Below are positions 34,603-64,000 of a stretch of DNA of 64,000 nt, in pieces. Made by a program: the position numbers and the translations under genes. The DNA is from an uncultured Bdellovibrionales bacterium (GTDB lineage Bacteria; Patescibacteriota; Minisyncoccia; Moranbacterales; UBA9337). Where the stretch lies: the NCBI GenBank assembly GCA_964605525.1, contig CAZSCV010000002.1, positions 5,888 to 69,887 on the forward strand, given 5' to 3'. Numbering within the stretch: the first letter of the stretch is position 1; every line of letters starts with the position of its first letter. Below the pieces are notes generated by a model. That model did not search any database, was not told the DNA's origin, and was given only the letters and a program-made list of their open reading frames with translations.

Positions 34603-34875
34603 ATGTATTTTAATTGGGTTGATTTCGTAGCTCTTTGGTTGGGTAGGGGCATTATTTATGCGTCTTTGGCAGTTTTTATATATTTATCTCTGTATTGGGC
34701 GTATATTGATTTTTTTCGAAAAAGACCATATTGTCCGAAATGTGGTTCGCGAAAATTGGCGACGGTCTGTGGAAATTCTTCAGGAGGTTATAGGTGTGCG
34801 GATTGTAGCACGCATTATTGGTGGGTGGGTGGATTGTGGCGGAGAGGAAAAAGCACACTTCAAAAACCCAAGTAA
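34603..34875 (+). CDS. small membrane protein with a C-terminal zinc-ribbon (CPKCG..CADC)
   Basis: Strong SD GAGGAGGT 8 nt upstream; 2 predicted TM helices; C4 motif; its 3' end overlaps the hypF-like gene, which runs convergently. Confidence 0.5.
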   Translation: MYFNWVDFVALWLGRGIIYASLAVFIYLSLYWAYIDFFRKRPYCPKCGSRKLATVCGNSSGGYRCADCSTHYWWVGGLWRRGKSTLQKPK

Positions 34876-49922: not shown

Positions 49923-50003
49923 TCAACGTGCCTTTTGCTGTTGATTTGTAATGTTAATTATAGTATATTAACTAGGTATTTTTCGGATTAATTAAGGGGG
50001 AAT

Positions 50004-51644
50004 ATGATTCAAAAAATAATAAATAGCAAGCTTTTTAGCGGCTCTCCAGTCGAATCGGTGGCAGGGGCAGCTTTGGTGATTTCGGTGGCCGGAATTCTGA
50101 GCCGTATTTTGGGATTGGTGCGAGATAGAATTCTTGCTTCTCGATTTGGAGCCGGAGATGTGCTGGACGTCTATTATGCTGCTTTTCGTGTGCCTGATTT
50201 GGTATATAATCTTTTGGTTGTAGGCGCGCTCAGTGCGGCTTTTATTCCTGTTTTTACGCGCTTGATTACGAGCAAGAAAAAAGACGAAGCACGCAAGCTG
50301 TCTTCCGGAGTGATAACATTAATAGTGCTTGCCGTGTTATTAATATCATCGATGCTGGCTATTTTTGCGCCACTAGTGATGAGTTTGGTTACCCCCGGTT
50401 TTTCTCCGGAAAAAATGAGCGATGTTGTTTATTTCACTCGGATTATGTTTTTGAGCCCGATTTTTTTGGGGATTAGCGCTGTTTTCGGAGGAATGCTGGT
50501 TTCGTATAAAAGATTTTTGGTTTATTCGCTGGCGCCGATTATGTACAATATCGGAATTATTATCGGCGCCGTGTTTTTCGTCAGAATTTTCGGTCCCGTT
50601 GGATTGGCATGGGGAGTGGTTCTGGGCGCGGTATTGCATATGCTGATTCAATATCCGGCGGCAAAAAAAACCGGATTTAAATACAGCTTTTCTTTAATGA
50701 AATCCGTGTGCGATAAAAATGTGCGGAAAGTAATTGTTTTGATGATTCCTCGCAGTTTGGGAATGGCGGTTAATCAAATAAATTTGCTGGTAATTACGAT
50801 TTTTGCATCGACTTTGGCGGCGGGAAGTCTGGCGGTTTTCAATTTTGCCAATAATATTCAAAGCGTTCCATTAGGACTTTTTGGAGTATCTTTTGCGGTA
50901 GCGGCTTTTCCGCATCTAAGCGGTTTGGCAGGAGAAAAAAGCCGCAAAGAATTTGCCCGGGTATTTTCACGAACTTTTCGAAGGATAATATTTTTTGTGA
51001 TGCCGATGAGTGTGGCTATTTTTGTTTTACGCGCAGAAATTGTGCGTGCGGTTTTGGGAGCAGGTCAATTTGATTGGGAGGATACAGTGCGAACACTTCA
51101 AGTGCTGGGAATTTTGTCGCTCAGTCTTTTCGCCCAAAGCTTGATTCCTCTTTTGGCGCGCTCTTTTTATGCGATTCATGACACAAAATTTCCTTTTTAT
51201 ATTGCGCTGGTGAGCGAAGCGGTTAATATTATTTTGGTAATAACGTTGCTGGAAAAATATCAAGTGATGGGACTGGCGATTGCTTTTTCAGTTTCCAGCA
51301 TTTTGAATATGTTTTTGCTGGTTGCAATTCTCCGGAAGAGGGTGGGGTATTTGGATGATAAAAAGATTGTTTCATCTTTTGTTAAAATCGGACTGGCTTC
51401 GCTTTTTGCCGGAGGAGTTATTCAACTCGGGCGTTATTATTTGAGTAATTTTATTTCTCTGGATACTTTGGCGGAAGTGCTGGTTCAGATTGTCATTTCG
51501 GGAGGAATGGGAGTGGCAACTTTTCTTTTGGGTTGCTATTATTTCGGAATTGAAGAATTTCACGATTTCAAAAAATCCATTCTGGTAAAAATATTCGGAA
51601 TGCCGGCGGACATAATCAAAGATCCGAATTCGATGGAGCAATAA
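50004..51644 (+). CDS. murJ: lipid II flippase MurJ (MviN)
   Basis: ILGLVRDRILASRFGAGDVLDVYYAAFRVPDL and the 14-TM MOP-superfamily profile. Confidence 0.9.
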   Translation: MIQKIINSKLFSGSPVESVAGAALVISVAGILSRILGLVRDRILASRFGAGDVLDVYYAAFRVPDLVYNLLVVGALSAAFIPVFTRLITSKKKDEARKLSSGVITLIVLAVLLISSMLAIFAPLVMSLVTPGFSPEKMSDVVYFTRIMFLSPIFLGISAVFGGMLVSYKRFLVYSLAPIMYNIGIIIGAVFFVRIFGPVGLAWGVVLGAVLHMLIQYPAAKKTGFKYSFSLMKSVCDKNVRKVIVLMIPRSLGMAVNQINLLVITIFASTLAAGSLAVFNFANNIQSVPLGLFGVSFAVAAFPHLSGLAGEKSRKEFARVFSRTFRRIIFFVMPMSVAIFVLRAEIVRAVLGAGQFDWEDTVRTLQVLGILSLSLFAQSLIPLLARSFYAIHDTKFPFYIALVSEAVNIILVITLLEKYQVMGLAIAFSVSSILNMFLLVAILRKRVGYLDDKKIVSSFVKIGLASLFAGGVIQLGRYYLSNFISLDTLAEVLVQIVISGGMGVATFLLGCYYFGIEEFHDFKKSILVKIFGMPADIIKDPNSMEQ

Positions 51645-51706
51645 AGAAAAAAACAGATGCCCATCTTCTTGCCTAATCGGCAATTTTTTGAACCAAATAT
51701 AGTTAG

Positions 51707-51783
51707 TTAGCTGATGTATTAAAAAATTCTTTTCGCTTTCGTCGAATGACGAAAGATTTAATTGGGGCAAATTTATTTTTAAA
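51707..51783. repeat. left ~77-bp inverted repeat of the cassette (contains hairpin CTTTCGTC-gaat-GACGAAAG)
   Basis: Its outer 29 nt and inner 25 nt are reverse-complementary to 52675-52743 with 2 mismatches. Confidence 0.85.
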
Positions 51784-52666
51784 TATCATTTTCAATTAAC
51801 TTTTCAAATGTTATTTTTTCTAAATGCATAAAATCATCGATATCCATAAGAAAAACTCTGGAATTTCTTAGGGATAGCGCACCAGGAGAAAATCCTGAGA
51901 ATGATACCAAGAAGGCATAGTCTGCACTTTCGCTTACCAGCGTGCCAAATAATTCTCTAACAAAGTTTGGATTGATCGGTTTTGCATATTTCTTACATTG
52001 GATAATAATTTTCTTACCATTATGTTGAGCCACGACATCAACTCCCTTATCACCAGAGCCAGGAGTGGCGTATGCTTCTATCCCCATTTTATTAAGATGC
52101 GAAGCCACTTCTATCTCAAACTCTCTCCATGAAAGTAGTTTCCAATAGTCGACTTGTTTTTTCGCGTCATTTTGGATGCAAACCGCATAATCAACAAATT
52201 TTTTTATTGTAGGTGAGAAATTAAGATAAATTTTACTTAACATAGAATGTGTTATCATCATTAAAATAAATCCAGGAAAGAAAAAAGATATTACTAAGCT
52301 TGATAAAAATTCCGTAGATTTTGAGTCATTCATAAAAACAAAGACTACGTATAGACTAATCGCGTATCCAATAAGAACGCCAAATATACCCCAAAAAGCA
52401 TATGCTTTCGCAGTATTTTTTAGATTAATCAATTCAGGCTTCTCTAAATTAAATGTTTTTTGTTCAATAGTGTGATTTGAATTGTTTGATAATTGTTTTG
52501 ATTCTTCATCGATATGTCTAAAAATTTCCAAAGAACAATATTCGCTAATTTTTTTAGCTAAAAATGGATTAATATAAAACTTAGCTACATTATCGCTTGA
52601 TATATCGGAGCCAGCCAAACTTTTTGCCATCAAATATTTATCCACTGATACTTTAAATTTTTTCAT
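51779..52666 (-). CDS. membrane-anchored protein with a C-terminal Mrr-type restriction-endonuclease catalytic domain (Mrr_cat)
   Basis: 2 TM helices mid-protein; C-terminal WREFEIEVASHL..GDKGVDVVAQHNGKKIIIQCKKY..VRELFGTL matches the Mrr_cat signature (D..(D/E)xK core). Confidence 0.7.
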   Translation of the reverse strand: MKKFKVSVDKYLMAKSLAGSDISSDNVAKFYINPFLAKKISEYCSLEIFRHIDEESKQLSNNSNHTIEQKTFNLEKPELINLKNTAKAYAFWGIFGVLIGYAISLYVVFVFMNDSKSTEFLSSLVISFFFPGFILMMITHSMLSKIYLNFSPTIKKFVDYAVCIQNDAKKQVDYWKLLSWREFEIEVASHLNKMGIEAYATPGSGDKGVDVVAQHNGKKIIIQCKKYAKPINPNFVRELFGTLVSESADYAFLVSFSGFSPGALSLRNSRVFLMDIDDFMHLEKITFEKLIENDI

Positions 52667-52674
52667 CTGCCTGA

Positions 52675-52743
52675 TTTAAAAATAAATTTGCCCCAATTAG
52701 ATGCCCGTTAGGGCCGAAAAGAATTTTTTAATATTTCAGCTAA
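52675..52743. repeat. right ~69-bp inverted repeat of the cassette (contains hairpin GCCC-gtta-GGGC)
   Basis: Reverse complement of 51707-51783 apart from the central hairpin, which is replaced by a different hairpin. Confidence 0.85.
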
Positions 52744-52821
52744 CTAGTTATATGCGAACTGGTTGATTTTTTGGTTTGGATTGGCTATAATTTGAATATA
52801 AAATTCTAATCATAACGCCTT

Positions 52822-53029
52822 ATGAATGGAAATTATAAATTTCCAAGCAAGGATCCTATATACCAACTAAAACAAGAAATGAAGTTGCGGAAATTTAGTC
52901 CAAAAACTATCAAATCATATCTTTATTATATCACGGATCCGTTGAAATATTCAAACTGTACAGGAATTGCTGGGGCATGCTAATATTAGAACGACTCAGA
53001 TTTATGCGAAAGTGACCAATCCACGTTAA
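52822..53029 (+). pseudogene. decayed tyrosine site-specific recombinase (XerC/D / phage-integrase family) remnant
   Basis: Frame 1 encodes the SAM-like N-terminus ..KLRKFSPKTIKSYLYYI..; a shifted frame encodes the C-terminal box ELLGHANIRTTQIYAKVTN (the catalytic Tyr region); ~250 aa of core are missing. Confidence 0.6.
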
Positions 53030-53059
53030 GAAATATTAAAAGCCCATTGGAATGAAATT

Positions 53060-54910
53060 ATGAACAATATTCGAAATTTTTGCATAATCGCTCATATTGA
53101 CCATGGAAAATCGACTTTATCCGATCGGCTTTTGGAATTTACCGGAACCGTGGAAAAGCGAAAGATGAAAGAACAGCTTCTGGATCAGATGGATTTGGAA
53201 CGCGAGCGGGGAATAACCATCAAACTTCAGCCCGTTAGAATGAATTATAAAGAATATGTTTTGAATTTGATTGACACTCCGGGGCATGTGGATTTCGGAT
53301 ATGAAGTTTCGCGTTCGCTGGCGGCGGTGGAAGGGGCGATTTTGTTAGTGGATGCCACCAAGGGAGTGCAAGCGCAAACCCTTTCCAACTTGTATTTGGC
53401 GATTGAACAAGGTCTGGAAATAATTCCAGTAATAAATAAAATTGACCTGCCTAATGCCGAAGTGGAAAAAACCAAAAAAGAAATTGTGCATATTTTGGGA
53501 TGCGATGAAAGTGAAATTCTTTCAGCTTCAGGCAAAACCGGAATAGGCGTGGAGGAGATAATCCGACGAGTGATAGAAAAAGTTCCTTCTCCGAAAGGAA
53601 GCCTTGAAAAACCGTTGCGCGCGCTTATTTTCGATTCAAAATACGATATTTACAAAGGCGTTTTGGCTTACGTTCGAATCGTGGACGGGCAAGTAAAAAG
53701 AGATGACAAAATTTTTATGATGGCGACAGAGCGCGGAACTTCCGTGGTGGAGGTGGGAAGTTTCCGCCCGGCTCTCAAAAGTGAAGAGAATTTGAAAGCG
53801 GGGGATATCGGATATGTGGCAACCGGATTTAAGAGCGTGGAATATTGCCGGGTGGGCGATACGATAACCGCTCAGGGTATTCAAATTGTTAAAAATATCG
53901 AAAACGTTCAAAGTGAAAAAGACCAGTTAAACAGATTGGAACAATTAAAACAGCCTGGCGCAGTGATGGCGCTACCCGGGTACAAGGAAGTGCGTCCGAT
54001 GGTATATGCCAGTTTTTATCCGGTTGAAGGAGATGAATATACCTTAATGCGCGACGCTTTGGAAAAATTGCGCCTTAATGATGCAGCTTTTGTTTTCGAA
54101 CCGGAAAGCAATCCGGCGTTGGGAAAAGGCTTTCGCTGCGGATTTTTGGGAATGCTTCATTTGGAGATTATTCAGGCGCGGCTTGAACGTGAATTTGAAA
54201 TTTCACCCACCATCACAACTCCTAGTGTTGTGTATCGGGTAAAAATCAAAGATCAAGAAACAGAAAAAATAATTTATTCCGCTTCTGATATGCCGGACGC
54301 TTCAATGATTGAATCAATTTCTGAACCGCATGCAAAGCTGGATATCATTACTCCTTCCGGATATCTTGGCGCGGTAATGGATTTGATGACTTCCATAAGA
54401 GCGGAATATAGAAATACGGAATATATTGATCAAGAAAGAGTTTTGCTTAGTTACGAAGCGCCACTTACGGATATTATTGTTAATTTCCATGATGAACTTA
54501 AAAGTGCTTCCTCGGGTTTTGCTTCAATGAATTATGAAGTGATTGGATATCGGCAATCAGACTTGGTAAAAATGGATATTTTAGTGGCGGAAGAAAAAGT
54601 GGAGGCGCTTTCTCGAATTGTTCCAAGAGAAAAAGCTCTTTCGCAAGGAAAATCGGCCGTTTCCAAACTCAAAGATTCTATTCCGCGCCAGAATTTTGTT
54701 ATTGCGATTCAGGCGGCAATTGGCGGAAAAATTATTGCCAGAGAAACAATCCGTCCTTTCCGCAAAGATGTTATTTCGAAATTATATGGCGGAGATGTTA
54801 CGCGAAAGAGAAAATTGTTGGAAAAACAAAAGAAGGGAAAGAAAAAGATGAGGAATATTGGAAAAGTTTCCATTCCGCCGGAGGCGTTTTTATCGGTGCT
54901 GAAGAAATAG
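53060..54910 (+). CDS. lepA: elongation factor 4 (LepA)
   Basis: [34 protein letters not shown]; conserved LepA C-terminal domain. Confidence 0.93.
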   Translation: MNNIRNFCIIAHIDHGKSTLSDRLLEFTGTVEKRKMKEQLLDQMDLERERGITIKLQPVRMNYKEYVLNLIDTPGHVDFGYEVSRSLAAVEGAILLVDATKGVQAQTLSNLYLAIEQGLEIIPVINKIDLPNAEVEKTKKEIVHILGCDESEILSASGKTGIGVEEIIRRVIEKVPSPKGSLEKPLRALIFDSKYDIYKGVLAYVRIVDGQVKRDDKIFMMATERGTSVVEVGSFRPALKSEENLKAGDIGYVATGFKSVEYCRVGDTITAQGIQIVKNIENVQSEKDQLNRLEQLKQPGAVMALPGYKEVRPMVYASFYPVEGDEYTLMRDALEKLRLNDAAFVFEPESNPALGKGFRCGFLGMLHLEIIQARLEREFEISPTITTPSVVYRVKIKDQETEKIIYSASDMPDASMIESISEPHAKLDIITPSGYLGAVMDLMTSIRAEYRNTEYIDQERVLLSYEAPLTDIIVNFHDELKSASSGFASMNYEVIGYRQSDLVKMDILVAEEKVEALSRIVPREKALSQGKSAVSKLKDSIPRQNFVIAIQAAIGGKIIARETIRPFRKDVISKLYGGDVTRKRKLLEKQKKGKKKMRNIGKVSIPPEAFLSVLKK

Positions 54911-54977
54911 TTGACTTTTTTGGCGATAAGGCGTAAGATATCTTTTGTATAACTCGCATTTAATTTATTTGAAAAAT

Positions 54978-55286
54978 ATGTTGGCAATTATTAAAACAGG
55001 CGGAAAACAGTACAAAATTGAAGAAGGGGATAAAATTAAAATTGAAAAGATTGAAGGAAAAGAAGGGGATGTGATCTCTTTTGATGAAGTCCTGTTCGTT
55101 GGGGATGAAAAAGATGTAAAAATTGGAAATCCAATGGTTGCCGGTGCAAAAGTTGAAGGAAAGATTGTCCAGCAAACACGAGATGAAAAAGTTTGGGGAA
55201 TCAAGCACAAGGCCAAAAAGCGATACAAAATGAAATTCGGACACAAACAATTTCGAACTGAAGTGGAAATTACAAAAATAGCCTAA
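54978..55286 (+). CDS. rplU: 50S ribosomal protein L21
   Basis: MLAIIKTGGKQYKIEEGD..; start set at ATG 54978; no rpmA follows. Confidence 0.9.
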   Translation: MLAIIKTGGKQYKIEEGDKIKIEKIEGKEGDVISFDEVLFVGDEKDVKIGNPMVAGAKVEGKIVQQTRDEKVWGIKHKAKKRYKMKFGHKQFRTEVEITKIA

Positions 55287-55306
55287 TAAAAAAACTTTCA
55301 GAATAA

Positions 55307-55340
55307 AAAATACCTTGCAATTTGCGCAAGGTATTTTTGT
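55307..55340. terminator. bidirectional terminator hairpin (ATACCTTGC..GCAAGGTAT) flanked by A- and T-runs, between rplU (+) and recR (-)
   Basis: 9-bp stem; AAAAAAT 5' and TTTTTGTT 3'. Confidence 0.6.
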
Positions 55341-55930
55341 TATAATTCTTTTCTATTAGAAAGGGCACTGCAGAGCGTGGTTTCGTCGGCATATTCAATG
55401 TCGCCCCCGGTAGACATTCCGCGACCAAGCCGGGTGATTTTTATTTGAGCGGGTTGAAGTTTTCTTTTTAAGTAAAGGGCGGTAAGGTCGCCTTCGGTTG
55501 TTGGGTTGGTTGCCAGGATAACTTCTTTAATTTTTTCAGTGGCAACCCGCGTTAGAAGCTGGGGAATTTTCAGTTCATTCTTTTCCGATTTTCCGGATGA
55601 TTGCATCGTCCCTCCCAATACATGGTAAAGTCCGCGATAAATTCCCGTGCGTTCAATCGAGATAATATCCAGAGAATCTTCAACAACACAAATAACATCC
55701 TGAACTCTTTGTTTGTCGCGGCAAATGTGGCAATGGGCATTTTCAGAAATGTTGAAACATTTTTGGCAAACTGTCAGATTTTTCAAGGCGAGCAAGCTCT
55801 TTGAAAAGTCGTCCAGGTTTTCTCTGTCTTTTTTGAACAAAAACAAAACCAGCCTTTCGGCCATTTTTGGACCGACAGAGGGAAGGGAAGCAAAATGTTC
55901 AATTAAATCTTTGAATACTTTCGGGTACAT
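55340..55930 (-). CDS. recR: recombination protein RecR
   Basis: HhH motif LPSVGPKMAERL; C4 zinc finger CQKCFNISENAHCHIC; Toprim domain. Confidence 0.92.
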   Translation of the reverse strand: MYPKVFKDLIEHFASLPSVGPKMAERLVLFLFKKDRENLDDFSKSLLALKNLTVCQKCFNISENAHCHICRDKQRVQDVICVVEDSLDIISIERTGIYRGLYHVLGGTMQSSGKSEKNELKIPQLLTRVATEKIKEVILATNPTTEGDLTALYLKRKLQPAQIKITRLGRGMSTGGDIEYADETTLCSALSNRKEL

Positions 55931-55975
55931 AATTTTTTAGAATAAGCCTCATAGGTCTTATGTGTCGTATGTTTT

Positions 55976-57337
55976 TTACGTGTGGATTTTTTCCAGGTTT
56001 TTGAACGTGGTGGATTCTTCTTTGAAATACAATTGCGCTTTTCCGAGCGGTCCGTTTCTGTGTTTTGAGATAATCACCTCCACGATATTTTTATTTGGCG
56101 TATCCGGTTTTTCCCGGTCTTCCCGATAAAGAAAGAGCACCACGTCGGCATCTTGCTCGATGGATCCGGATTCACGCAAGTCGGAAAGTTTTGGAATTTG
56201 GGGACTGCGTGATTCAACTGCGCGAGAAAGCTGGGAAAGTGCCAGCACGGGAACGTTGAGTTCGCGCGCCAATTGTTTGAGAGCGCGAGAAATTTCTGAA
56301 ATTTCTTGAACACGACTGTCTCCCTGCGTTTTTCTTCCTTCCATTAATTGCAAATAATCGATAATAATCAAGCCGACACCATGTTCTGATTGCAATCGTC
56401 GCGCCATGGTGCGAATTTCCATAATATTGGCGCTTCCGGCATCGTCAATGTATATCGGTGCTTCACTGAGTGACCCCATCGCATTTCCAATCCGCTGGAA
56501 ATCATCGTTGCCCGCATCACTGCGAAGCCTTCCAGTGCGGAGACGCCAAAGATCAACATCCGCTTCAGCAGCAATCATCCTATCAATTAATTGGTCTGAT
56601 GACATTTCCAGTGAAAAAATTCCTACCGGAGTTTTTGTTTTGGTTCCGATTTGGCGGGCGATATCCAATGCGAATGTTGTTTTTCCAATAGAAGGCCTGG
56701 CAGCTAAAATAATCAAATCTGATTTTTGAAGGCCGGAAAGAATATTATCTAAATCCGTGAATCCGGTAGGAATTCCGCGAAAATCATGTTCTCCTTTGTG
56801 AAGTTCGTCAATGCGATTAAAAGCGCTTTCAAGAATTGATTTGATCGGAGTAAAATCTTTTTTGGCATATTTTTGAGAAACGCTGAAAAGTCTTTGCTCT
56901 GCCATGTCGAGAGTCTTTTCCACATCTTCAGATTCTTGGTAGCCGATTTCAGAAATATCATTAGCGACATTTATGAGGCGACGCAGAATTGCTTTTTTTT
57001 GGACTACCTTTGCGTAATGAGCGATATTGGCAGCCGAAGGAACAGTATTTACCAAAGAAGCCAGATAGCTGGAACCGCCGATGAGTTCAAGTTTTTTGCT
57101 TTCTTCCAGTTTGTTGGAAAGGCTCAAAACATCTATTGGTTCCTTGTATTCATAAAGCTTCAACATTAATTCATAAATAATGTTGTGAGTTTCTTTGTAA
57201 AAATCTCCGACAGCCAAAAAATCCGCCACTTTGATAATGGCGTCTTTGTCCAGCATTAGTGATCCAAGGACTGACTGTTCCGCTTCAATATTATGAGGAG
57301 GAACGCGTAAATTTTCGCTTGATTTTTTTCCAGCCAT
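55976..57337 (-). CDS. dnaB: replicative DNA helicase DnaB
   Basis: PHNIEAEQSVLGSLML N-terminus; Walker A ARPSIGKTTFAL; RecA-like H1-H4 motifs. Confidence 0.93.
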   Translation of the reverse strand: MAGKKSSENLRVPPHNIEAEQSVLGSLMLDKDAIIKVADFLAVGDFYKETHNIIYELMLKLYEYKEPIDVLSLSNKLEESKKLELIGGSSYLASLVNTVPSAANIAHYAKVVQKKAILRRLINVANDISEIGYQESEDVEKTLDMAEQRLFSVSQKYAKKDFTPIKSILESAFNRIDELHKGEHDFRGIPTGFTDLDNILSGLQKSDLIILAARPSIGKTTFALDIARQIGTKTKTPVGIFSLEMSSDQLIDRMIAAEADVDLWRLRTGRLRSDAGNDDFQRIGNAMGSLSEAPIYIDDAGSANIMEIRTMARRLQSEHGVGLIIIDYLQLMEGRKTQGDSRVQEISEISRALKQLARELNVPVLALSQLSRAVESRSPQIPKLSDLRESGSIEQDADVVLFLYREDREKPDTPNKNIVEVIISKHRNGPLGKAQLYFKEESTTFKNLEKIHT

Positions 57338-57544
57338 AAAAAATATTGAATTTGAAGTTAATAAGTGGAAAAATCGATCATCTGTTTGCTTATTATATCA
57401 AGCTGAAATTTAAAATCAATCTCTTGACAATTAAGGGCGATATGTGTTATTCTAGTTTGACAACAAATATTAGAAATCAGCCTGCTTAAGGGCTGTTTGA
57501 AAGAGTTGTGAATTTTAAACAATTTTTTATTTTTAGTTAAAAAT

Positions 57545-58588
57545 ATGAATAAATCAAAAAGCGTAAAAATATCTGAAAAAAATGAACCTTTGGCAATCAA
57601 GTCCATGAAGGTTGTTTTGGATTTTCTTCCAGAAAGAGCGGAAAAAATCTTGAAAATGAGATTCGGAGTTATTAATGGTCATCCAGCAACACTGGAGGAA
57701 ATAGGAAAAAAATATGGAATAACCAGGGAAAGAGTTCGCCAGATTATAAAAGAGGCATTAAATAAGGTAAAAAGAAAAAAAGTCAAAAGCGGAGCTTCCA
57801 TTGAACAGGAGATTAAATTTGCAATCAATAAAAGTAATGGTATAATCAGAGAAGAAAAGTTATTGAACCAAGTAAGTGATAATGTCAAAGCTCAAGGAGC
57901 CGTCAAGTTTTTTTTGAAAGTTATTGACGGGGTGAATTCCAGGTCTGCCAGCGCGGAGATGGAAAAAGTTTTTTATGTGAAAGATTTTGATTTTTCAAAA
58001 TGGAAAGATTGCAAGGATATTGCAAAAAAGATATTGGAAAAGAAAAATGTTTCAATTCCGTCTGATGAAATCGTAAAAGAGATTTCCGCCGCAGATGCAA
58101 ATATTGAAAAATCCGCAATTTTGGATTATTTGGATGTTTGCAAGGAGGTAAAAATCAATAATTTTGGAAAATGGGGAATGATTCAATGGAGCGATATTAC
58201 TCCAAAAGGAACAAGAGAAAAAGCTTTTCTCGTAATGAAAGAACATGGAGAACCTCTTCATTTTACTAATGTAGCGGAGTTTATTGACAAATACGGGTTA
58301 AGCAAAAGAAAATCTCATCCGCAAACAGTGCATAATGAATTGATTAAGGACACTCGGTTTGTTTTGGTTGGCAGGGGCGTTTACGCTTTGGCAGAGTGGG
58401 GATACAAGAGAGGGACGGTTAAGGATGTGCTCGAGGAAATTTTTCGAGAAAGCGGACAGCCGATGAGCCGGGATGAAATTCTGAACAAGGTTCTGTCCAG
58501 TCGAAAAGTCAAGAAATCCACTATTATGATAAATCTGAACAATTTTTTTGTTCGAGTTGATAAAGATAGATATGCAATAAAAAAATAA
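57545..58588 (+). CDS. sigma-70 region-4-like HTH protein with a C-terminal winged-helix-like domain (putative transcription regulator)
   Basis: LPERAEKILKMRFG..TLEEIGKKYGITRERVRQIIKEALNKV is a textbook sigma-70 region 4.2 HTH; no regions 2 or 3 are present. Confidence 0.55.
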   Translation: MNKSKSVKISEKNEPLAIKSMKVVLDFLPERAEKILKMRFGVINGHPATLEEIGKKYGITRERVRQIIKEALNKVKRKKVKSGASIEQEIKFAINKSNGIIREEKLLNQVSDNVKAQGAVKFFLKVIDGVNSRSASAEMEKVFYVKDFDFSKWKDCKDIAKKILEKKNVSIPSDEIVKEISAADANIEKSAILDYLDVCKEVKINNFGKWGMIQWSDITPKGTREKAFLVMKEHGEPLHFTNVAEFIDKYGLSKRKSHPQTVHNELIKDTRFVLVGRGVYALAEWGYKRGTVKDVLEEIFRESGQPMSRDEILNKVLSSRKVKKSTIMINLNNFFVRVDKDRYAIKK

Positions 58589-58629
58589 AGCAGTCTAGCG
58601 GTTTATTTTTTATACCAAAAACAAAATAA

Positions 58630-59910
58630 ATGTTTGAAATAATCAGGGAATCTTTTCTGAATTTAGGCGAAAGCATTTCAGGTGGGTGGCAAATATTGTC
58701 CCATATCTGGTTTATTGTGCTTCCGCCTGTTTTGTATTATTTGTTTAAATTGATTTGGATGGATTTTGTCCAAAATAAATTTCTCGGATCATTGCAATGG
58801 GTGATGCTGGAAATTATTCCTCCGCGGGAAATTGAAAGAAGCCCCCAGCCGATGGAATCAATTTTTAACGGATTGACCGGGGTGTACAAAGGTCTTAATG
58901 CGAAAGACTTGTATGTTGACGGCGCGCTCACATTGAGTTTCAGTCTAGAATTGGTAAGTGACGCCGGACAAGTGCATTTCTATATCCGCACCACAAAACA
59001 AAACAGGGGGCTTGTCGAATCCCACATATACGCGCAATATCCGGATGCAGAAATTCTGGAAGTTCCCGATTATACAAATGATGTTCCGAAAATTATTCCA
59101 AACAAGACTTGGGAGCTTTGGGGAACTGATTTTATGCTTATTAAACCGGATGCTTATCCGATCAGGAGTTATAGCTGGTTTGAAGAAAGTGTAACCGGAA
59201 AAATGATTGATCCTTTGTCCTCATTGGTTGAAGCGATGGGAACAGCTGGTCCTGGACAACAACTCTGGTTTCAAATTATTATTATCCCCGAAGAGTTGAA
59301 TTATTATAATTCCGGAAGAGTATTGATAGATAAGCTGGCAGGAAGAGTGAAAAAAGAAAATCCAGGAATTTTGAGCGGTGTTGGAAAAGATTTCGTTGAT
59401 GTTATAAAAGGAGTTTTTCAGGGAATTTTTTCTCCGGTAGAATTTTCTCCAGCAAAGGAAAATAAAAAAGAGGAGGTTCCATTGGAATTCCGCCTTACTC
59501 CAGGAGAGAAAGACGCAATGAAAGCAATTGAAGAATCAATGGGGAAGGCTGTTTTCCTGACAAAAATTCGTTTCCTTGTGGTTGGAAAAAGACAAGGATT
59601 CGACCGTTCGATAATCGGTGCTTTTATGGGAGGCGTCCGTCAGTTTTCTGATTCCAATTTGAATGGATTCAAGCATGATAATACTTCGAAAACTTACGGA
59701 ATTCATTGGGGCGGAAAAATGCGCACACTTTATCGTCAAAGAAAAATATTTCAGCGTTACAAGGATCGTGATCCTACCGGAACGAAATTTTTTCTCAATA
59801 CTGAAGAGTTGGCGACAATTTTTCATTTTCCGGATATGGCCGTGGTTGCGCCTTCAGTGAGAAAAGTTGAATCCAAACGTGGAGGAGCTCCATCAAATCT
59901 GCCAATTTAA
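58630..59910 (+). CDS. hypothetical membrane protein (N-terminal TM hairpin, large soluble domain)
   Basis: TM segments IWFIVLPPVLYYLFKLIWMDF; no known motif; 44-bp gap to the downstream ATPase, same strand. Confidence 0.55.
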   Translation: MFEIIRESFLNLGESISGGWQILSHIWFIVLPPVLYYLFKLIWMDFVQNKFLGSLQWVMLEIIPPREIERSPQPMESIFNGLTGVYKGLNAKDLYVDGALTLSFSLELVSDAGQVHFYIRTTKQNRGLVESHIYAQYPDAEILEVPDYTNDVPKIIPNKTWELWGTDFMLIKPDAYPIRSYSWFEESVTGKMIDPLSSLVEAMGTAGPGQQLWFQIIIIPEELNYYNSGRVLIDKLAGRVKKENPGILSGVGKDFVDVIKGVFQGIFSPVEFSPAKENKKEEVPLEFRLTPGEKDAMKAIEESMGKAVFLTKIRFLVVGKRQGFDRSIIGAFMGGVRQFSDSNLNGFKHDNTSKTYGIHWGGKMRTLYRQRKIFQRYKDRDPTGTKFFLNTEELATIFHFPDMAVVAPSVRKVESKRGGAPSNLPI

Positions 59911-59954
59911 TGGTGAAGTTTATTGATTTGATTTAATGTTTTAATAAAAATAAT

Positions 59955-61772
59955 ATGTCTGATATAACATTTTTTGCCAAAACAAATTTTCGCAATAAAG
60001 AAACTGAATTTGGGATAAAAACCGATGATCGACGGAGGCATATTTATGTGATTGGAAAAACCGGTATGGGAAAAACCAATTTGCTTGAGCATTTGGTTAT
60101 TCAGGATATTCGTAATGGACATGGAGTGGCATATATTGATCCGCATGGTGATACGGCGGAAAAAATTCTCAAAGCTGTTCCATCGGAAAGAATTAATGAT
60201 GTGATTTATCTCAATCCGTCAGACGCGGAATTTCCAATTGCTTTTAATATCTTGGAGGCAGTCGACGAGGATAAGAAAAATTTGGTGGCATCCGGAATGA
60301 TGGGAGTATTTAAAAAGATTTGGCCGGATGTGTGGAGTCCTCGAATGGAGTATATTTTGAACAATACAATTTTGGCGCTTTTGGATTATCCAGGGTCAAC
60401 AATGCTTGGAGTGAGCCGGATGATGTCAGATAAGGATTATCGGAAGCGGGTTTATGTAAAAATCAAAGATCCGGTGGTAAAATCTTTCTGGATTAATGAG
60501 TTTGACAAATGGGAAGATCGTTTTCGAAAAGAGGCAGTGGCGGCGATTCAAAATAAGGTTGGACAGTTTCTTTCTTCATCCGTAATCCGGCACATTGTAG
60601 GACAGCCGAAATCGACGATTGATATGCGCGATATTATGGATAATAAGAAAATTTTAATTGTCAATCTTTCCAAAGGGAGAATCGGAGAAGATGCAATGCG
60701 CCTTTTGGGAGGAATGATTGTGACAAAAATTCAGCTGGGAGTAATGGGGCGCGTGGATATTCCGGAGGAGGAAAGAAAAGATTTTTACTTGCATGTGGAT
60801 GAATTTCAAAATTTTGCCACTGAATCGTTTGCCAGCATTCTTTCCGAGGCGCGAAAATACCGCTTAAGCTTGACCTTGGCGCATCAATATATCAGCCAGC
60901 TTGTTATTGATGGAAACGCGACAGTTCGCGATGCGATTTTCGGAAATGTTGGAACGCTGATCGCTTTTCGTGTTGGAGCTGAAGATGCTGAACAATTGGA
61001 AAAAGAATTTGAGCCGATTTTTACTGCTAATGATATTATTAATTTGCCGAAATATCACGTTTATTTGAAACTGATGATTGATGGTGTGGCGGGAGATGCT
61101 TTTTCTGCGACTACTTTGCCTCCGGTTGAAATAAAATCAACAGAAAAGAATTTTGAAAAGATTATTCGAAATTCCCGCGAAAGATATGGAAGCAATAAAA
61201 AAGAGGTGGAAGATCGGATTGCAAGATGGAGCGGAATGGTTATTGACAGCGGAGTGACTTTCGACGGCGGAGAAAATATGTATGAAGATAGGAACACAAA
61301 TCCACAAAGAAATTATCCGAAAGAACAAAGACCTGAAAAACAGCCATCCGTTCAGGCGGTAAAAGATCTTCCGGAAAAAGTAGTTGCGCCTCAAAAATCT
61401 GAAACTGAAGAAGTTGAGCGCGTTTTGTATGATGCCAAATGCGCCACTTGTGAAACCACCATCAAAGTTCCTTTTCGTCCGGATGGAAAACGTCCAACTT
61501 TTTGCAAGGATTGCCTCAAAGACTATCAACGGACGGTGGCGAAATCTAAACAGCAAATGGAAGAAAAGGAGAATTTCAAAAAAGAATCAAAAAAAGAGGT
61601 TGAGGATCCGCGGATAATTGAACGGGTAGCATACAAGGCGCCTGAAAATCCGGTCAAGCTCTCCCAATTGAAAAATGTCGCTCCGAAAAAATTCAAGAAT
61701 CTTCGCAAGAAACCTAATGTTGATTTGAAAGGAATACGCGACTTAATCAGTAAAAATCAAGAAAAAAAATAA
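59955..61772 (+). CDS. TraD/TraG/VirD4-like (TrwB-type) P-loop ATPase lacking TM segments, with a C-terminal C4 zinc ribbon
   Basis: Walker A RHIYVIGKTGMGKT, DPHGD, Walker B HVDEFQNF, and ARKYRLSLTLAHQYISQL (TraG-D_C-like); C-terminal CATC-x17-CKDC. Confidence 0.5.
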   Translation: MSDITFFAKTNFRNKETEFGIKTDDRRRHIYVIGKTGMGKTNLLEHLVIQDIRNGHGVAYIDPHGDTAEKILKAVPSERINDVIYLNPSDAEFPIAFNILEAVDEDKKNLVASGMMGVFKKIWPDVWSPRMEYILNNTILALLDYPGSTMLGVSRMMSDKDYRKRVYVKIKDPVVKSFWINEFDKWEDRFRKEAVAAIQNKVGQFLSSSVIRHIVGQPKSTIDMRDIMDNKKILIVNLSKGRIGEDAMRLLGGMIVTKIQLGVMGRVDIPEEERKDFYLHVDEFQNFATESFASILSEARKYRLSLTLAHQYISQLVIDGNATVRDAIFGNVGTLIAFRVGAEDAEQLEKEFEPIFTANDIINLPKYHVYLKLMIDGVAGDAFSATTLPPVEIKSTEKNFEKIIRNSRERYGSNKKEVEDRIARWSGMVIDSGVTFDGGENMYEDRNTNPQRNYPKEQRPEKQPSVQAVKDLPEKVVAPQKSETEEVERVLYDAKCATCETTIKVPFRPDGKRPTFCKDCLKDYQRTVAKSKQQMEEKENFKKESKKEVEDPRIIERVAYKAPENPVKLSQLKNVAPKKFKNLRKKPNVDLKGIRDLISKNQEKK

Positions 61773-61805
61773 AATAAAAAATTAATATAATTTTTTTAAA
61801 ATAAA

Positions 61806-62435
61806 ATGGATAAAAAATCAAAGGTACTGATAGCAGTTTTTGTTGCGTTAATTTTTATTTCCGTCGGAGCGACATATTGGAGAATAGTGATTAAAAAGGA
61901 CTATATCATTGAATCGCAAGTTGATTGTGATCCATATGAAGAAGAGTGTTTTGTTTGGGAATGTGATCCGCAGTCTTCTGTTGAGGGAGAAGCGTGCACC
62001 GGAAAACCCGAAGAAGATGTTTGGTATTTCAAAGTTGTCAGAAGAAATGCCGGCAACATTCCTCTTTGCGATCCGGATGCGGATGAAGAATGTGAGCCGT
62101 TTTTGTGCTCTGAGGATGAGAAAGATTGCGAGGAGGAATTCTGCGCCGAGGAAAATATGGAAAATTATTCCGCGGCAAGTTGCAATGATCCTGCTATTTT
62201 TTCCGCTCAAAATCCGATTGAAGAAACCGACGAATGCCTCGAGGAGGAAGATGATTGCGTAAAAGATGCGGAAGTTTTGGAAGAAATTGATAATGAAAAG
62301 GAGATTGATGTGCTGGAAAATCAGGAGGGGATTTTGGATGCCGAAAGTGATACTTTAAAAGATGATGATGCAGAGGAGAATATGCCAATGGAAAATGCTG
62401 ATCAAGCCGTGCCAATAGAAATAATTCCTTTGTAA
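61806..62435 (+). CDS. acidic, cysteine-rich secreted/anchored protein (hypothetical)
   Basis: N-terminal TM/signal anchor; 18 Cys and more than 35% D+E in the mature part. Confidence 0.5.
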   Translation: MDKKSKVLIAVFVALIFISVGATYWRIVIKKDYIIESQVDCDPYEEECFVWECDPQSSVEGEACTGKPEEDVWYFKVVRRNAGNIPLCDPDADEECEPFLCSEDEKDCEEEFCAEENMENYSAASCNDPAIFSAQNPIEETDECLEEEDDCVKDAEVLEEIDNEKEIDVLENQEGILDAESDTLKDDDAEENMPMENADQAVPIEIIPL

Positions 62436-62579
62436 ATATTTATAAAAGTTAGAGAATCTAAATAAATATAAAAAGGAGGTATGTGATTAGGAATAAACAA
62501 TATTATCCTTGTTTTGTTTGACTTTTGCCTTGCTTAATGATACTTTGAATAAAGTTAAATGGAGTATAATTTTAAATTT

Positions 62580-63212
62580 ATGAACAAGAAAAATATCATT
62601 ATTTTAGCAGTTGTTCTGACAATCATCATTGTCGGAGGTTTTTTGGTCTGGAAAGGTGATCAGAAGGTTGAAGTTATTGAGGAACAGGGTCAAGATCAGA
62701 ATCAACAGCAAGGAGAAGATCAGCAGACGGTGGTTGATACAAGTGATTGGAAGACTTACAGAAATGAAGAATATGGGTTTGAGATTGAATTGCCTGGGAA
62801 TATGAACAAATGGAATATAGAAAAAAAAGTTTTCCCTAAGAGCGATATATATAGTGCGGAAACAGTAGCCTTGTATTTAAATTATGATTTAGATACGAGT
62901 ATTCAGCGCGCAGAGAATGATTCAGCATTAGGAATGATAAATGAGATGGGTTTGTATTATATAAGTATTATACCTATAGAGATATGGAGACAAGATATTT
63001 GTGATTCTGTGAAGGATGGTCCATGCTATCAGGGAGAAGTGTTGGGAAAAAATAATTTGTACGTTTTTGAGTCAGGGTTTACAAGTATCGAAGGTGCTGG
63101 CTATTTGTGTTTAGAGAAAGGCAATATGCAAAAAGAATTTTGTGCCGTAGATAAAAATTTTGGCAGAGATGATATTATAAGTCGGTTAAATTTTAGATTA
63201 ATAAAGGAGTGA
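62580..63212 (+). CDS. hypothetical secreted protein (signal anchor, Q/D/E-rich linker)
   Basis: ORF with an N-terminal hydrophobic segment; start ambiguous (62559 or 62580). Confidence 0.45.
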   Translation: MNKKNIIILAVVLTIIIVGGFLVWKGDQKVEVIEEQGQDQNQQQGEDQQTVVDTSDWKTYRNEEYGFEIELPGNMNKWNIEKKVFPKSDIYSAETVALYLNYDLDTSIQRAENDSALGMINEMGLYYISIIPIEIWRQDICDSVKDGPCYQGEVLGKNNLYVFESGFTSIEGAGYLCLEKGNMQKEFCAVDKNFGRDDIISRLNFRLIKE

Positions 63213-63275
63213 GTAAATAGATATAGTAGTATCTTGAAAATTTAATAAAATCAGGGAGGTGCTTATTGAGATTGA

Positions 63276-63743
63276 AAGGACGTTGCCATTTTTGATTCAA
63301 CCTCCACAAATCCATACGGTCATGTTGCTGTTATTGATAGTATCAATGGGGATCAAATAACTATCAGTGAGTGGAATTATGGATCGCTGTCTTCTGATTC
63401 AGCAAAACGTGCCTGTGGTGTGACTAATGAATTTGGTGTGTTGCATAATCCTGTTCGCACAATATCCAAAAGTAGTGTGTCCAAATTTTGGAGGCCAAAT
63501 TTTTCTAGTGATTCTATCTCTATGGAAGCTCAAATGCGCGTTGTCGGTCAAATCGGCTGGTATCCGGCTAATAAAACCTGCATTAACGCGGATTACTGGG
63601 CGCGAATAGTAGATAATAAAGCTGTTCAATCTCTTGGAGACTATTCCGCTTGTTATGAGGTTGGGTTGGGATATATAACCAATCCTGAATACGCGGATAT
63701 TCTTTTTGGAACTGGCGATTTGCCGGAAATTTGCATTCAATAA
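63276..63743 (+). pseudogene. truncated CHAP-domain (peptidoglycan amidase/peptidase) fragment lacking the N-terminal Cys half
   Basis: Frame opens after a stop at 63273; translation ..FDSTSTNPYGHVAVIDSINGDQITISEWNYG matches the His-containing CHAP C-terminal half; first ATG only at 63420. Confidence 0.45.
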
Positions 63744-63760
63744 AACGAGGAGGATTACCA

Positions 63761-64000
63761 ATGAAAGTAAAAATAATTTTACTGATGATACTTTTTGTAT
63801 TATCAATCCCTCTGTTCATATTTGCAGCGGAGTGTGGAAATATGGAAATAGTTCAGTTAGGTTCGGAAAATTCCGATAACGACAGTATTTCTATCCCCAC
63901 CAAAAATTCCTCAGTCAAAGTCCGCGAGATCCAAATCTCTGACGATGACGACAAGATGATTTCTCATTCCCTCATCAAAGAGCCGGATCAGAAATATCAC
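63761..64000 (+). CDS. hypothetical secreted protein, 3' end outside window
   Basis: MKVKIILLMILFVLSIPLFIFAA signal peptide; ORF continues past the window end. Confidence 0.4.
   Translation, partial: MKVKIILLMILFVLSIPLFIFAAECGNMEIVQLGSENSDNDSISIPTKNSSVKVREIQISDDDDKMISHSLIKEPDQKYH

Follow-up and report, generated by a model that had tools for sequence, protein, structure and literature searches.

A probable split type IV coupling-protein-like ATPase in a conserved chromosomal three-gene module of Patescibacteria

Here we describe two adjacent genes on a stretch of 64,000 nt, hereafter the window, from an uncultured Bdellovibrionales bacterium classified by GTDB among the Patescibacteriota (Minisyncoccia, Moranbacterales, UBA9337; assembly GCA_964605525.1, contig CAZSCV010000002.1, positions 5,888 to 69,887 of the forward strand). 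The first gene, A, encodes a membrane protein with a DUF8128 domain and the second, B, an ATPase of the TrwB/VirD4/TraD type that lacks a transmembrane (TM) segment. As a whole the evidence is best explained by A and B being the two parts of a split "long" type IV coupling-protein (T4CP)-like ATPase, which probably forms a membrane-tethered substrate motor. Together with the gene directly upstream of A, here designated S, they make up a conserved chromosomal module of Patescibacteria, S-A-B, that is found in a housekeeping context.

The ATPase family has been catalogued in the phylum before. Quinonero-Coronel et al. (2025, PMC12102498) counted 5,713 VirD4-type homologues, found in 2,918 of 3,035 Patescibacteria genomes, and since these include homologues far from virB4 the label "undescribed", given to the system in the initial annotation of the window, had to be dropped. 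What appears new, as far as we searched, is the split partner, the predicted VirB4-like fold of this partner, the split-versus-fused relation that extends across Patescibacteria, Actinobacteria, Bacillus phages and haloarchaea, and the three-gene synteny. No paper describing DUF8128 or the split arrangement was found.

Results

Gene pair and sequence features

The features of A and B are as follows.

58630-59910, forward strand: gene A, 426 aa, DUF8128 (PF26449) protein, ends with TAA
58687-58770, forward strand: single TM segment of A, residues 20-47, WQILSHIWFIVLPPVLYYLFKLIWMDFV, the sole Kyte-Doolittle window above 1.2
59803-59907, forward strand: conserved C-terminal peptide of A, EELATIFHFPDMAVVAPSVRKVESKRGGAPSNLPI, corresponding to the linker into the ATPase domain of fused homologues
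59911-59954, no strand: spacer between A and B, 44 nt, AT-rich
59955-61229, forward strand: ATPase core of gene B, residues 1-425, TrwB/VirD4/TraD-type P-loop NTPase without TM segment
60054-60077, forward strand: Walker A of B, GKTGMGKT, residues 34-41, within RHIYVIGKTGMGKT (residues 28-41)
60792-60815, forward strand: Walker B of B, HVDEFQNF, residues 280-287
61230-61772, forward strand: C-terminal tail of B, 180 aa plus stop codon (61770-61772), charged, low complexity
61440-61514, forward strand: zinc ribbon of B, CATC-x17-CKDC, residues 496-520, Pfam zf_Tbcl_2 and NCBIfam TIGR04272
61653-61694, forward strand: tail motif stretch of B, VKLSQLKNVAPKKF, degenerate, picked by eye
61719-61754, forward strand: tail motif stretch of B, VDLKGIRDLISK, degenerate, picked by eye

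The complete open reading frame of B (59955-61772, forward strand) encodes 605 aa and ends with TAA. The initial annotation had reported a pair of 426 and 605 aa with a gap of 44 nt as well as a set of coupling-protein motifs in B, all of which were recovered: besides the Walker motifs, DPHGD is found at residues 62-66 and ARKYRLSLTLAHQYISQL at residues 299-316. Its description of B as a TM-less ATPase also holds, as no hydrophobic Kyte-Doolittle window above 1.2 occurs anywhere in B. The charged tail, with 40 K+R and 30 D+E among its last 180 residues, does contain the announced C4 ribbon but measures 180 rather than about 190 aa. The description of A required more correction. Instead of a TM hairpin it has only one hydrophobic segment, at residues 20-47, and it is not devoid of a recognisable domain, since in precomputed Pfam both P0001, whose sequence is identical to that of A, and all homologues listed are assigned to PF26449 (DUF8128).

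A and B correspond to consecutive halves of fused proteins

Both proteins match consecutive parts of long coupling-protein-like ATPases that are encoded as a single polypeptide. On the 824-position profile phrog_5156, A covers positions 29-358 (E-value 7.2e-10) and B positions 404-805 (6.5e-65). By means of hhalign, a DUF8128 profile was aligned with residues 15-322 of phage G gp156 (probability 97.6%, E 2.8e-12) and with residues 77-394 of an Embleya coupling protein (92%); the match with SPO1 gp27.4 was weak (57%), its ATPase half being clearly recognised (E 3.8e-20). Blastp aligned B residues 2-389 to residues 397-781 of the Embleya protein with 32% identity (E 7.5e-68). Since the ranges obtained with phrog_5156, hhalign and blastp are consecutive, the breakpoint between A and B coincides with the domain junction of the fused proteins. 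The similarity of B to the VirB4 paralogues of the same elements is restricted to the P-loop level. These results, combined with the near-exceptionless co-occurrence of the two genes given below, support the idea put forward in the initial annotation of a split coupling protein that obtains its anchor from the upstream gene.

The fused homologues are found in gene clusters of mobile elements. The Embleya plasmid protein (WP_331738717, 812 aa), annotated as "conjugative DNA transfer family protein", is part of a cluster with the order PrgI (VirB3-like), XF1762, VirB4 (TraC_F_IV, P-loop_TraG, AAA_10), fused protein, Replic_Relax and NlpC/P60. Phage G gp156 (825 aa) follows the VirB4-like gp155 (L007 2196-6338), and SPO1 gp27.4 (906 aa) adjoins the Replic_Relax protein gp27.3 and the actin-like gp27.9 (L008 1774-7284). 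A split set is found on a haloarchaeal plasmid of Haladaptatus, where a VirB4-like gene (1,072 aa) is followed by a DUF8128 homologue (350 aa; hhalign 95.4%, E 2e-8) and then by a coupling-protein-like ATPase (930 aa). The large Bacillus phages SPO1 and phage G thus bear conjugation-like gene sets, the role of which in the phage life cycle is unannotated.

The fused phrog_5156-type proteins and the window pair have in common the order of their domains, DUF8128-like at the N-terminus and VirD4-type ATPase thereafter, both halves being homologous in the case of Embleya and gp156. They differ in that the former are single polypeptides, encoded in mobile elements beside VirB4-like and/or Replic_Relax genes, whereas the Patescibacteria form consists of two chromosomal genes amid housekeeping genes. 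The window pair does not qualify as phrog_5156 type in the sense of one polypeptide, given the stop codon and the 44-nt spacer, and all 77 of 77 related pairs in the metagenome set described below are split as well, their spacers having a median length of about 34 nt. When phage records were searched with A by tblastn, no match was obtained at 1e-3, hence the phage link derives from profile and structure searches only, and 2.9 million viral contigs gave one partial match only.

A Pontibacillus megaplasmid (L010 6956-10595) contains a DUF8128 homologue of 426 aa, the last 36 residues of which align to the N-terminus of B (36%, E 8e-4). It is followed by about 2.3 kb of mostly unannotated DNA, an arrangement that resembles a disrupted fused gene, and its neighbourhood includes a sigma-like HTH gene as well as a conjugal transfer gene of pilin-like type. 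We also considered the HTH or sigma-like genes that occur beside the pair outside Patescibacteria (Pontibacillus, Haladaptatus, Embleya) and discarded these, as the association is too loose to count as evidence.

B is a coupling-protein-like ATPase with a variable tail

The matches of B to profiles are far beyond chance. Three Pfam coupling-protein models score above their gathering thresholds, TrwB_AAD_bind (PF10412) with 42.6 bits (gathering 20.5), T4SS-DNA_transf (PF02534) with 33.8 bits (20.1) and TraG-D_C (PF12696) with 27.6 bits (22). So does DUF87, the HerA central domain, with 27.2 bits (23.2), but the coupling-protein models outscore it and span the whole core, residues 23-347, and no FtsK_SpoIIIE match was found in Pfam. 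The solved structures nearest to B by sequence are those of the coupling proteins DotL and TrwB. We therefore class B with the coupling proteins rather than with an unrelated P-loop family, as the initial annotation had done. The VirB4 model TIGR00929 gives 22.5 bits with a cut-off of 643, the NCBIfam CedD model gives a weak local match in the P-loop region only (E 2.2e-8), and the PADLOC model mad8 (PDLC04140) matches residues 19-348 (E 7.8e-20). Judged by sequence similarity the pair is not to be filed as VirB4: in elements that encode both paralogues, B is much closer to the coupling protein than to VirB4.

Outside Patescibacteria, the protein closest to B is encoded by a Sulfitobacter plasmid (L009 6983-8170). 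It is a stand-alone, TM-less ATPase of 395 aa with 40% identity to B that has no adjacent DUF8128 gene, its neighbours being recombinase, transposase and DUF3768 genes, and it looks like a different use of the same motor.

The ribbon in the tail scores 39.3 bits with zf_Tbcl_2 (PF23477, gathering 27) and 42 bits with TIGR04272 (cut-off 36). Zinc binding by this CxxC-x17-CxxC domain type has been measured in small proteins of Methanosarcina (PMC12704099). As the ribbon is present in only part of the B homologues, 31 of 54 or 34 of 57 in two counts (about 57-60%), it is considered an accessory feature. One or both of two short motifs are present in many tails: the strict pattern [ILV]SLxxAL..P..F was found in 16 and V[DN]IxxL[RK]xxLxxSL in 17 of 58 homologues. 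These strict patterns do not match the tail of B in the window itself, where the two corresponding stretches were identified by eye. The motifs recur in otherwise unalignable tails of B homologues (L012-L094), with or without zinc ribbon, the second one standing a few residues from the C-terminus, and they resemble docking peptides.

The window contains one other CxxC-x17-CxxC pattern, CPKCGSRKLATVCGNSSGGYRCADC at 34732-34806 on the forward strand. It adjoins hyp/hydrogenase genes, and the VPF.P...RP signature that marks the B ribbon is missing from it.

A has one TM helix and a cytoplasmic domain with a VirB4-like predicted fold

At E <= 1e-3 the DUF8128 family comprises 1,797 clusters (50% identity), and the 150 clusters listed all consist of stand-alone proteins of roughly 220-690 aa. 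A scan of genome contigs with a single protein as query retrieved three near-identical relatives only, and no match to A was found in NCBIfam, PADLOC or the Pfam copy scanned, which does not include the PF26449 model. A single TM segment is found in 100 of the 103 family members analysed. Their mean number of K+R is 0.58 before and 2.05 after the TM segment, which indicates an N-out, C-in orientation. A thus crosses the membrane once, by a helix with its N-terminus outside, and has an alpha/beta domain of some 370 aa in the cytoplasm. In the Embleya fused protein the one TM segment is followed by RTRLRRRR, and no TM segment lies between the N-terminal domain and the ATPase. Based on the positive-inside signal and on this lack of a TM segment before the Embleya ATPase, the DUF8128 domain is located in the cytoplasm, as is B.

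The C-terminal peptide of A has the consensus ELAT..HFP...P..LP. Residues E393, A395, H399, P401, P421 and P425 are invariant, and E392, L394, T396, V405, P408, K416 and L424 near-invariant, even though disorder is predicted for the peptide and pLDDT is low at 405-419 in the structural model. The ELA..H.P part aligns in the homologues from Embleya, phage G and Haladaptatus.

The structure of A was predicted by AlphaFold using an alignment of 60 sequences, as a single-sequence run resulted in an unusable model with pLDDT 33. The model obtained (pLDDT 81.9, pTM 0.76) has a long helix at its N-terminus (residues 2-54) that leads into alpha/beta domains, with low confidence in loop 244-283 and tail 405-426. 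When the model was compared with the PDB by Foldseek, the 13 best matches were all TrwK/VirB4 of the R388 type IV secretion system (T4SS), with probabilities of 0.99-1.00 and E-values from 4.5e-5 to 9.5e-4; subsequent matches had low probability. In a viral structure library the best matches of the model were gp156 (E 4.5e-17) and, besides two further proteins of Bacillus phages, the VirB4-like gp155 (E 9.5e-7). The predicted fold of A therefore resembles VirB4/TrwK.

Residues 248-268 of A (59371-59433), within the low-confidence loop, apparently form an amphipathic helix. Its equivalents are strongly hydrophobic in phage G gp156 (180-208), which has no N-terminal TM segment, and in the Pontibacillus homologue (225-252). 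This loop helix may be a second element that contacts the membrane.

Gene S and conserved gene order

The third conserved member of the module is S, which was absent from the gene set considered in the initial annotation.

57424-57453, forward strand: promoter-like site, TTGACA, 18-nt spacer, TG-TATTCT, about 90 nt upstream of S (consensus scan 10/12 plus extended -10 TG)
57545-58588, forward strand: gene S, 347 aa, sigma-70 region 4 helix-turn-helix (HTH; residues 25-76) and HARE-HTH/RNA polymerase (RNAP)-delta-like winged helix (residues 225-285)

S scores 62.2 bits with Pfam Sigma70_r4, 60.9 bits with HARE-HTH and 43.2 bits with TIGR04567 (RNAP delta, cut-off 42). S, A and B might be transcribed together from the promoter-like site, which is a pattern match; no convincing terminator was found between the three genes, and no Rfam RNA family in 50000-64000.

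Conservation was assessed in a metagenome set of 80 loci in which A is 32-50% identical to the window copy, counting those loci with sufficient room on the contig. B follows A on the same strand within 600 nt in 65 of 69 loci and at 679 and 1,019 nt in two more, so the neighbourhood check proposed in the initial annotation came out in favour of the pair, with co-occurrence as the rule. S is found directly upstream of the DUF8128 gene in 60 of 62 loci. The ATPase core is 59-70% identical across the 80 loci; A and S drift to about 30-50%. In one assembly (L095; GCA_007376775.1, contig VMGV01000001.1) the contig ends directly after A and a partial B is located on a separate contig of 3.8 kb, which is why the adjacency is invisible there.

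Five independent contigs (L004, L005, L012, L013 and L014) show the order S, DUF8128 gene, ATPase gene. Their flanks vary but all hold housekeeping genes, encoding SecA, SecDF, MnmA, AlaRS, ribosomal proteins and MurJ. The large open reading frames of the window likewise encode PBP1, EF-G, BipA, MurD, DUF4012, MurJ, HypF and hydrogenase, in agreement with the earlier remark that neither VirB4 nor a relaxase is visible there. In L005 (4339-9928) the order is DUF4012, MurJ, S, A, B. Compared with this, the window has some 5.8 kb inserted between MurJ and S (51779-57337), with genes for an Mrr_cat protein resembling restriction endonucleases, with two TM segments (51779-52666, reverse strand), LepA, ribosomal protein L21, RecR and DnaB, which amounts to a lineage-specific rearrangement. 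S, the Southlakia epibionticum counterpart of which is essential, looks like an RNAP-associated factor, yet it is kept in synteny with a putative membrane translocase.

Counterparts in Southlakia epibionticum

The supplementary tables of Wang et al. (2023, PMC10633639) describe a similar gene order in Southlakia epibionticum. SEML1_0294 encodes 349 aa with Sigma70_r4 at 27-72 and HARE-HTH at 225-283 and immediately precedes SEML1_0293 in the same orientation. The latter encodes 921 aa with TrwB_AAD_bind at 402-719. As in the window, a sigma70-r4/HARE-HTH gene directly precedes a coupling-protein-like ATPase gene on the same strand and, as in the Embleya fusion, the ATPase domain begins near residue 400. 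Unlike the window pair, SEML1_0293 is apparently fused, its residues 1-400 being DUF8128-like to judge from length and domain positions. In the transposon sequencing (Tn-seq) of strain ML1, SEML1_0294 is essential, as is SEML1_0142, a separate FtsK-like protein (PMC10633639). According to Wang et al. (2023, PMC10633639), neither a coupling protein nor a relaxase is recognisable in the essential T4SS of S. epibionticum.

Downstream genes

The genes downstream of B had been proposed as further parts of a multi-gene system.

61806-62435, forward strand: acidic protein, 209 aa, N-terminal hydrophobic segment, 62 D+E, 12 Cys, no family match
about 63290-63745 (frame of 63213), forward strand: remnant of the C-terminal half of a CHAP-like hydrolase, ..YGHVAVIDSINGDQITISEWNY.., read by eye and unscored

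The first protein is acidic, as announced, yet we counted 12 rather than 18 Cys. Only two near-identical relatives (L001, L002) have it as well, whereas about 90 other loci all lack it. The second secreted protein encoded downstream has a single partial match, and neither of these two proteins has a PADLOC match. The CHAP fragment does appear decayed, as judged by eye, with in-frame stops just upstream and no N-terminal catalytic Cys region. On this distribution, the acidic protein being confined to two relatives and the second one having one partial match, the acidic, second secreted and CHAP genes were rejected as parts of the system. The suggested connection with type IV pilins or with effector delivery received no support from the results either.

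Discussion

Comparison with known systems

B shares with canonical T4CPs, such as TrwB of R388, VirD4, TraD and DotL/IcmO, the P-loop motor with Walker A and B motifs, the three Pfam models above gathering, a membrane tether, which B would owe to A, and an extended C-terminus like those with which TraD and DotL recruit proteins of the relaxosome or adaptors. Canonical T4CPs have an N-terminal domain with two TM segments in the same polypeptide, whereas the anchor of B would be the one TM segment of A, and TrwB and VirD4 lack the domain of about 370 aa that A brings. B is further distinguished by its zinc ribbon, by the lack of adjacent relaxase and mating-pore genes, and by scores far below the NCBIfam equivalog cut-offs.

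The solved-structure chains matched by the model of A are only those of TrwK/VirB4, and the model suggests a likeness to gp155 too. Another parallel is TrsD, a stand-alone protein that resembles the VirB4 N-terminal domain and adjoins VirB4 in Patescibacteria (PMC12102498), so that there, as in A, a VirB4-like N-terminal domain would be encoded separately beside its ATPase. A differs from VirB4/TrwK and TrsD in that it shows no sequence similarity to these and is paired with a VirD4-type rather than a VirB4-type motor.

The chromosomal VirD4-like ATPases CedD and TedD also belong to relaxase-free systems derived from T4SSs, and some of their orthologues lack a TM segment (PMC11823120). TedD is encoded within its locus, whereas cedD lies apart from the other ced genes, which encode the T4SS-like crenarchaeal Ced system for DNA import (PMC11823120). 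By analogy, CedD may be seen as a precedent for a chromosomal VirD4-like ATPase that serves a relaxase-free T4SS-like system while encoded elsewhere. Its requirement for DNA import was shown genetically, no DUF8128 partner has been reported and its similarity to B is confined to the P-loop, in all of which it differs from B.

Proposed mechanism and points against it

In the arrangement we propose, the C-terminal peptide of A would dock onto B, such that A tethers a ring of B, probably a hexamer, to the membrane. Hydrolysis of NTP would then enable B to translocate its substrate, of which nucleic acid is the most likely kind, or to pass it on, and the charged tail of B with zinc ribbon and short motifs may recruit the substrate or an adaptor, by analogy with the tails of TraD and DotL. 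We lean slightly towards the pair acting as an accessory, non-essential motor for a T4SS encoded elsewhere on the chromosome, rather than alone. Docking on a T4SS is favoured by the fact that every examined relative from outside the phylum with an intact N-terminal domain is found beside VirB4. The housekeeping location, the wider distribution than that of VirB4 and the non-essentiality speak for a motor that was exapted and works independently of the T4SS.

A number of results weigh against a split coupling protein that serves a T4SS. No T4SS gene or relaxase is present in the window or in six other contexts, nor in the 6 kb downstream of B in L002, the closest long relative with 83% identity, where only housekeeping genes follow. 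Of the 5,713 T4CP homologues of Patescibacteria only 148 are located near virB4, and VirB4 was detected in fewer genomes (2,417) than T4CP homologues (2,918) (PMC12102498). SEML1_0293 is non-essential by Tn-seq, yet the T4SS is essential (PMC10633639); the drop in SEML1_0293 reads from 5817 to 1372 during the time course may point to a cost. At the level of families, the best NCBIfam TraD model, TIGR03743 SXT_TraD, gives B 62.4 bits against a cut-off of 366 and NF045973 gives 41.9 against 250, so that B reaches none of the NCBIfam TraD/VirD4 equivalog or subfamily cut-offs (TraD, VirD4-like CD1115, TrbC). As to A, its TM-scores with TrwK are low, 0.31-0.36, and the aligned TrwK residues are not given by the tool. 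The DUF8128 profile did not match VirB4-like phage G gp155 in hhalign, a lenient Pfam scan of 47 DUF8128 members gave no recurrent match, VirB4 N-terminal models included, and a profile search of PDB sequences returned nothing. Since these sequence-level searches were all null, the resemblance of A to VirB4 is at the level of fold only.

Alternative explanations

The principal alternative, which we regard as possible but less probable than the split coupling protein, is that the motor was exapted and functions independently of a T4SS, either alone or with another channel such as ComEC, as a membrane-tethered translocase or processing ATPase for nucleic acid that is tied to S. The authors of the phylum-wide survey themselves state that exaptation of the scattered VirD4 homologues cannot be excluded (PMC12102498). 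Such a role would suit the housekeeping context with its tight S-A-B synteny across deep divergence, and the identity of 59-70% of the ATPase core is unusually high for a coupling protein. T4CP homologues occur in 96% of genomes and VirB4 in 80%, although this gap could stem from incomplete genomes combined with about two T4CP copies per genome. The contrast between a non-essential SEML1_0293 and an essential T4SS points in the same direction, but the essentiality of S combined with the non-essentiality of the ATPase means that S must have a role beyond the pair. What further counts against exaptation is that all examined homologues from outside Patescibacteria with an intact DUF8128 part adjoin a VirB4-like ATPase, and that no alternative channel is encoded nearby.

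Three other explanations seem improbable to increasing degrees. That B is a HerA/FtsK-type housekeeping enzyme for chromosome segregation or DNA repair, with a superficial likeness to coupling proteins, is very unlikely. The DUF87 score above gathering, the near-universal chromosomal occurrence of B and the DnaB and RecR genes just upstream in the window would fit such an enzyme, but the coupling-protein models score higher over the whole core, its nearest relatives over the full length are coupling-protein-like genes of T4SS clusters, no NurA-like neighbour was found, the DnaB/RecR neighbourhood is lineage-specific and missing in the other contexts examined, and S. epibionticum has its own separate FtsK-like SEML1_0142. 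An even smaller chance is given to a part in anti-phage defence, for instance related to MADS, an eight-gene operon (bioRxiv 10.1101/2023.03.30.534895). Mad8 resembles B in having a TM-less TrwB-like ATPase core and matches B as a profile with an E-value of 7.8e-20, TM-less TrwB-like ATPases do occur in defence operons, and the gene for the Mrr-type nuclease lies 6 kb upstream. Against this, PADLOC gave no match for A or for either of the downstream proteins (S lay outside the scan), no other mad gene is found among the neighbours examined, and the Mrr gene is absent at the homologous position of L005. Moreover, defence islands are patchy and evolve fast, whereas the module occurs almost universally, in constant gene order and with high sequence conservation. 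The least credible explanation is that of a remnant of an integrated conjugative element or prophage without host function: fused homologues do exist in plasmids and Bacillus phages, and the decayed CHAP hydrolase fragment lies 1.5 kb downstream, but no integrase, relaxase, VirB4 or repeat boundary is found nearby, GC content and GC skew are unbroken across the pair, the position between housekeeping genes is kept in many lineages, the ATPase is under strong purifying selection and the viral contigs provided a single partial match.

Implications

If A and B form a split coupling protein, the scattered VirD4 homologues of Patescibacteria, to which no role had been assigned (Quinonero-Coronel et al. 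2025), would be half of a two-gene unit, the DUF8128 half of which corresponds to the N-terminal domain of coupling proteins from T4SS clusters of monoderms and archaea. DUF8128 would thereby gain a structural context and a protein complex would be defined, with SEML1_0293 and SEML1_0294 as named counterparts in the genetically tractable S. epibionticum. The clade with a VirB4-like predicted fold in its N-terminal domain, which in Actinobacteria, phages and haloarchaea stands in tandem after VirB4, would be a candidate intermediate between VirB4 and VirD4, and would give the study of T4SS evolution a candidate link between these ATPases.

A more speculative and, in our judgement, rather doubtful possibility, drawn by analogy with archaeal CedD in DNA import, is that S-A-B represents a phylum-wide motor for nucleic-acid import, in which rings of B would pull host DNA or RNA into the cell via the T4SS or another channel while the zinc-ribbon tail binds nucleic acid. 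Uptake of host RNA by a cultivated Patescibacterium has been reported, by a route left unresolved in the preprint (bioRxiv 10.64898/2026.06.21.733656), and an import motor, if true, would supply the missing mechanism. For nucleotides Patescibacteria rely on host cells, and their T4SS, although essential, was described as having no recognisable coupling protein (Wang et al. 2023). Should the motor described here prove to act on nucleic acids of the host, it would be directly relevant to the nutrition of these ultrasmall parasites.

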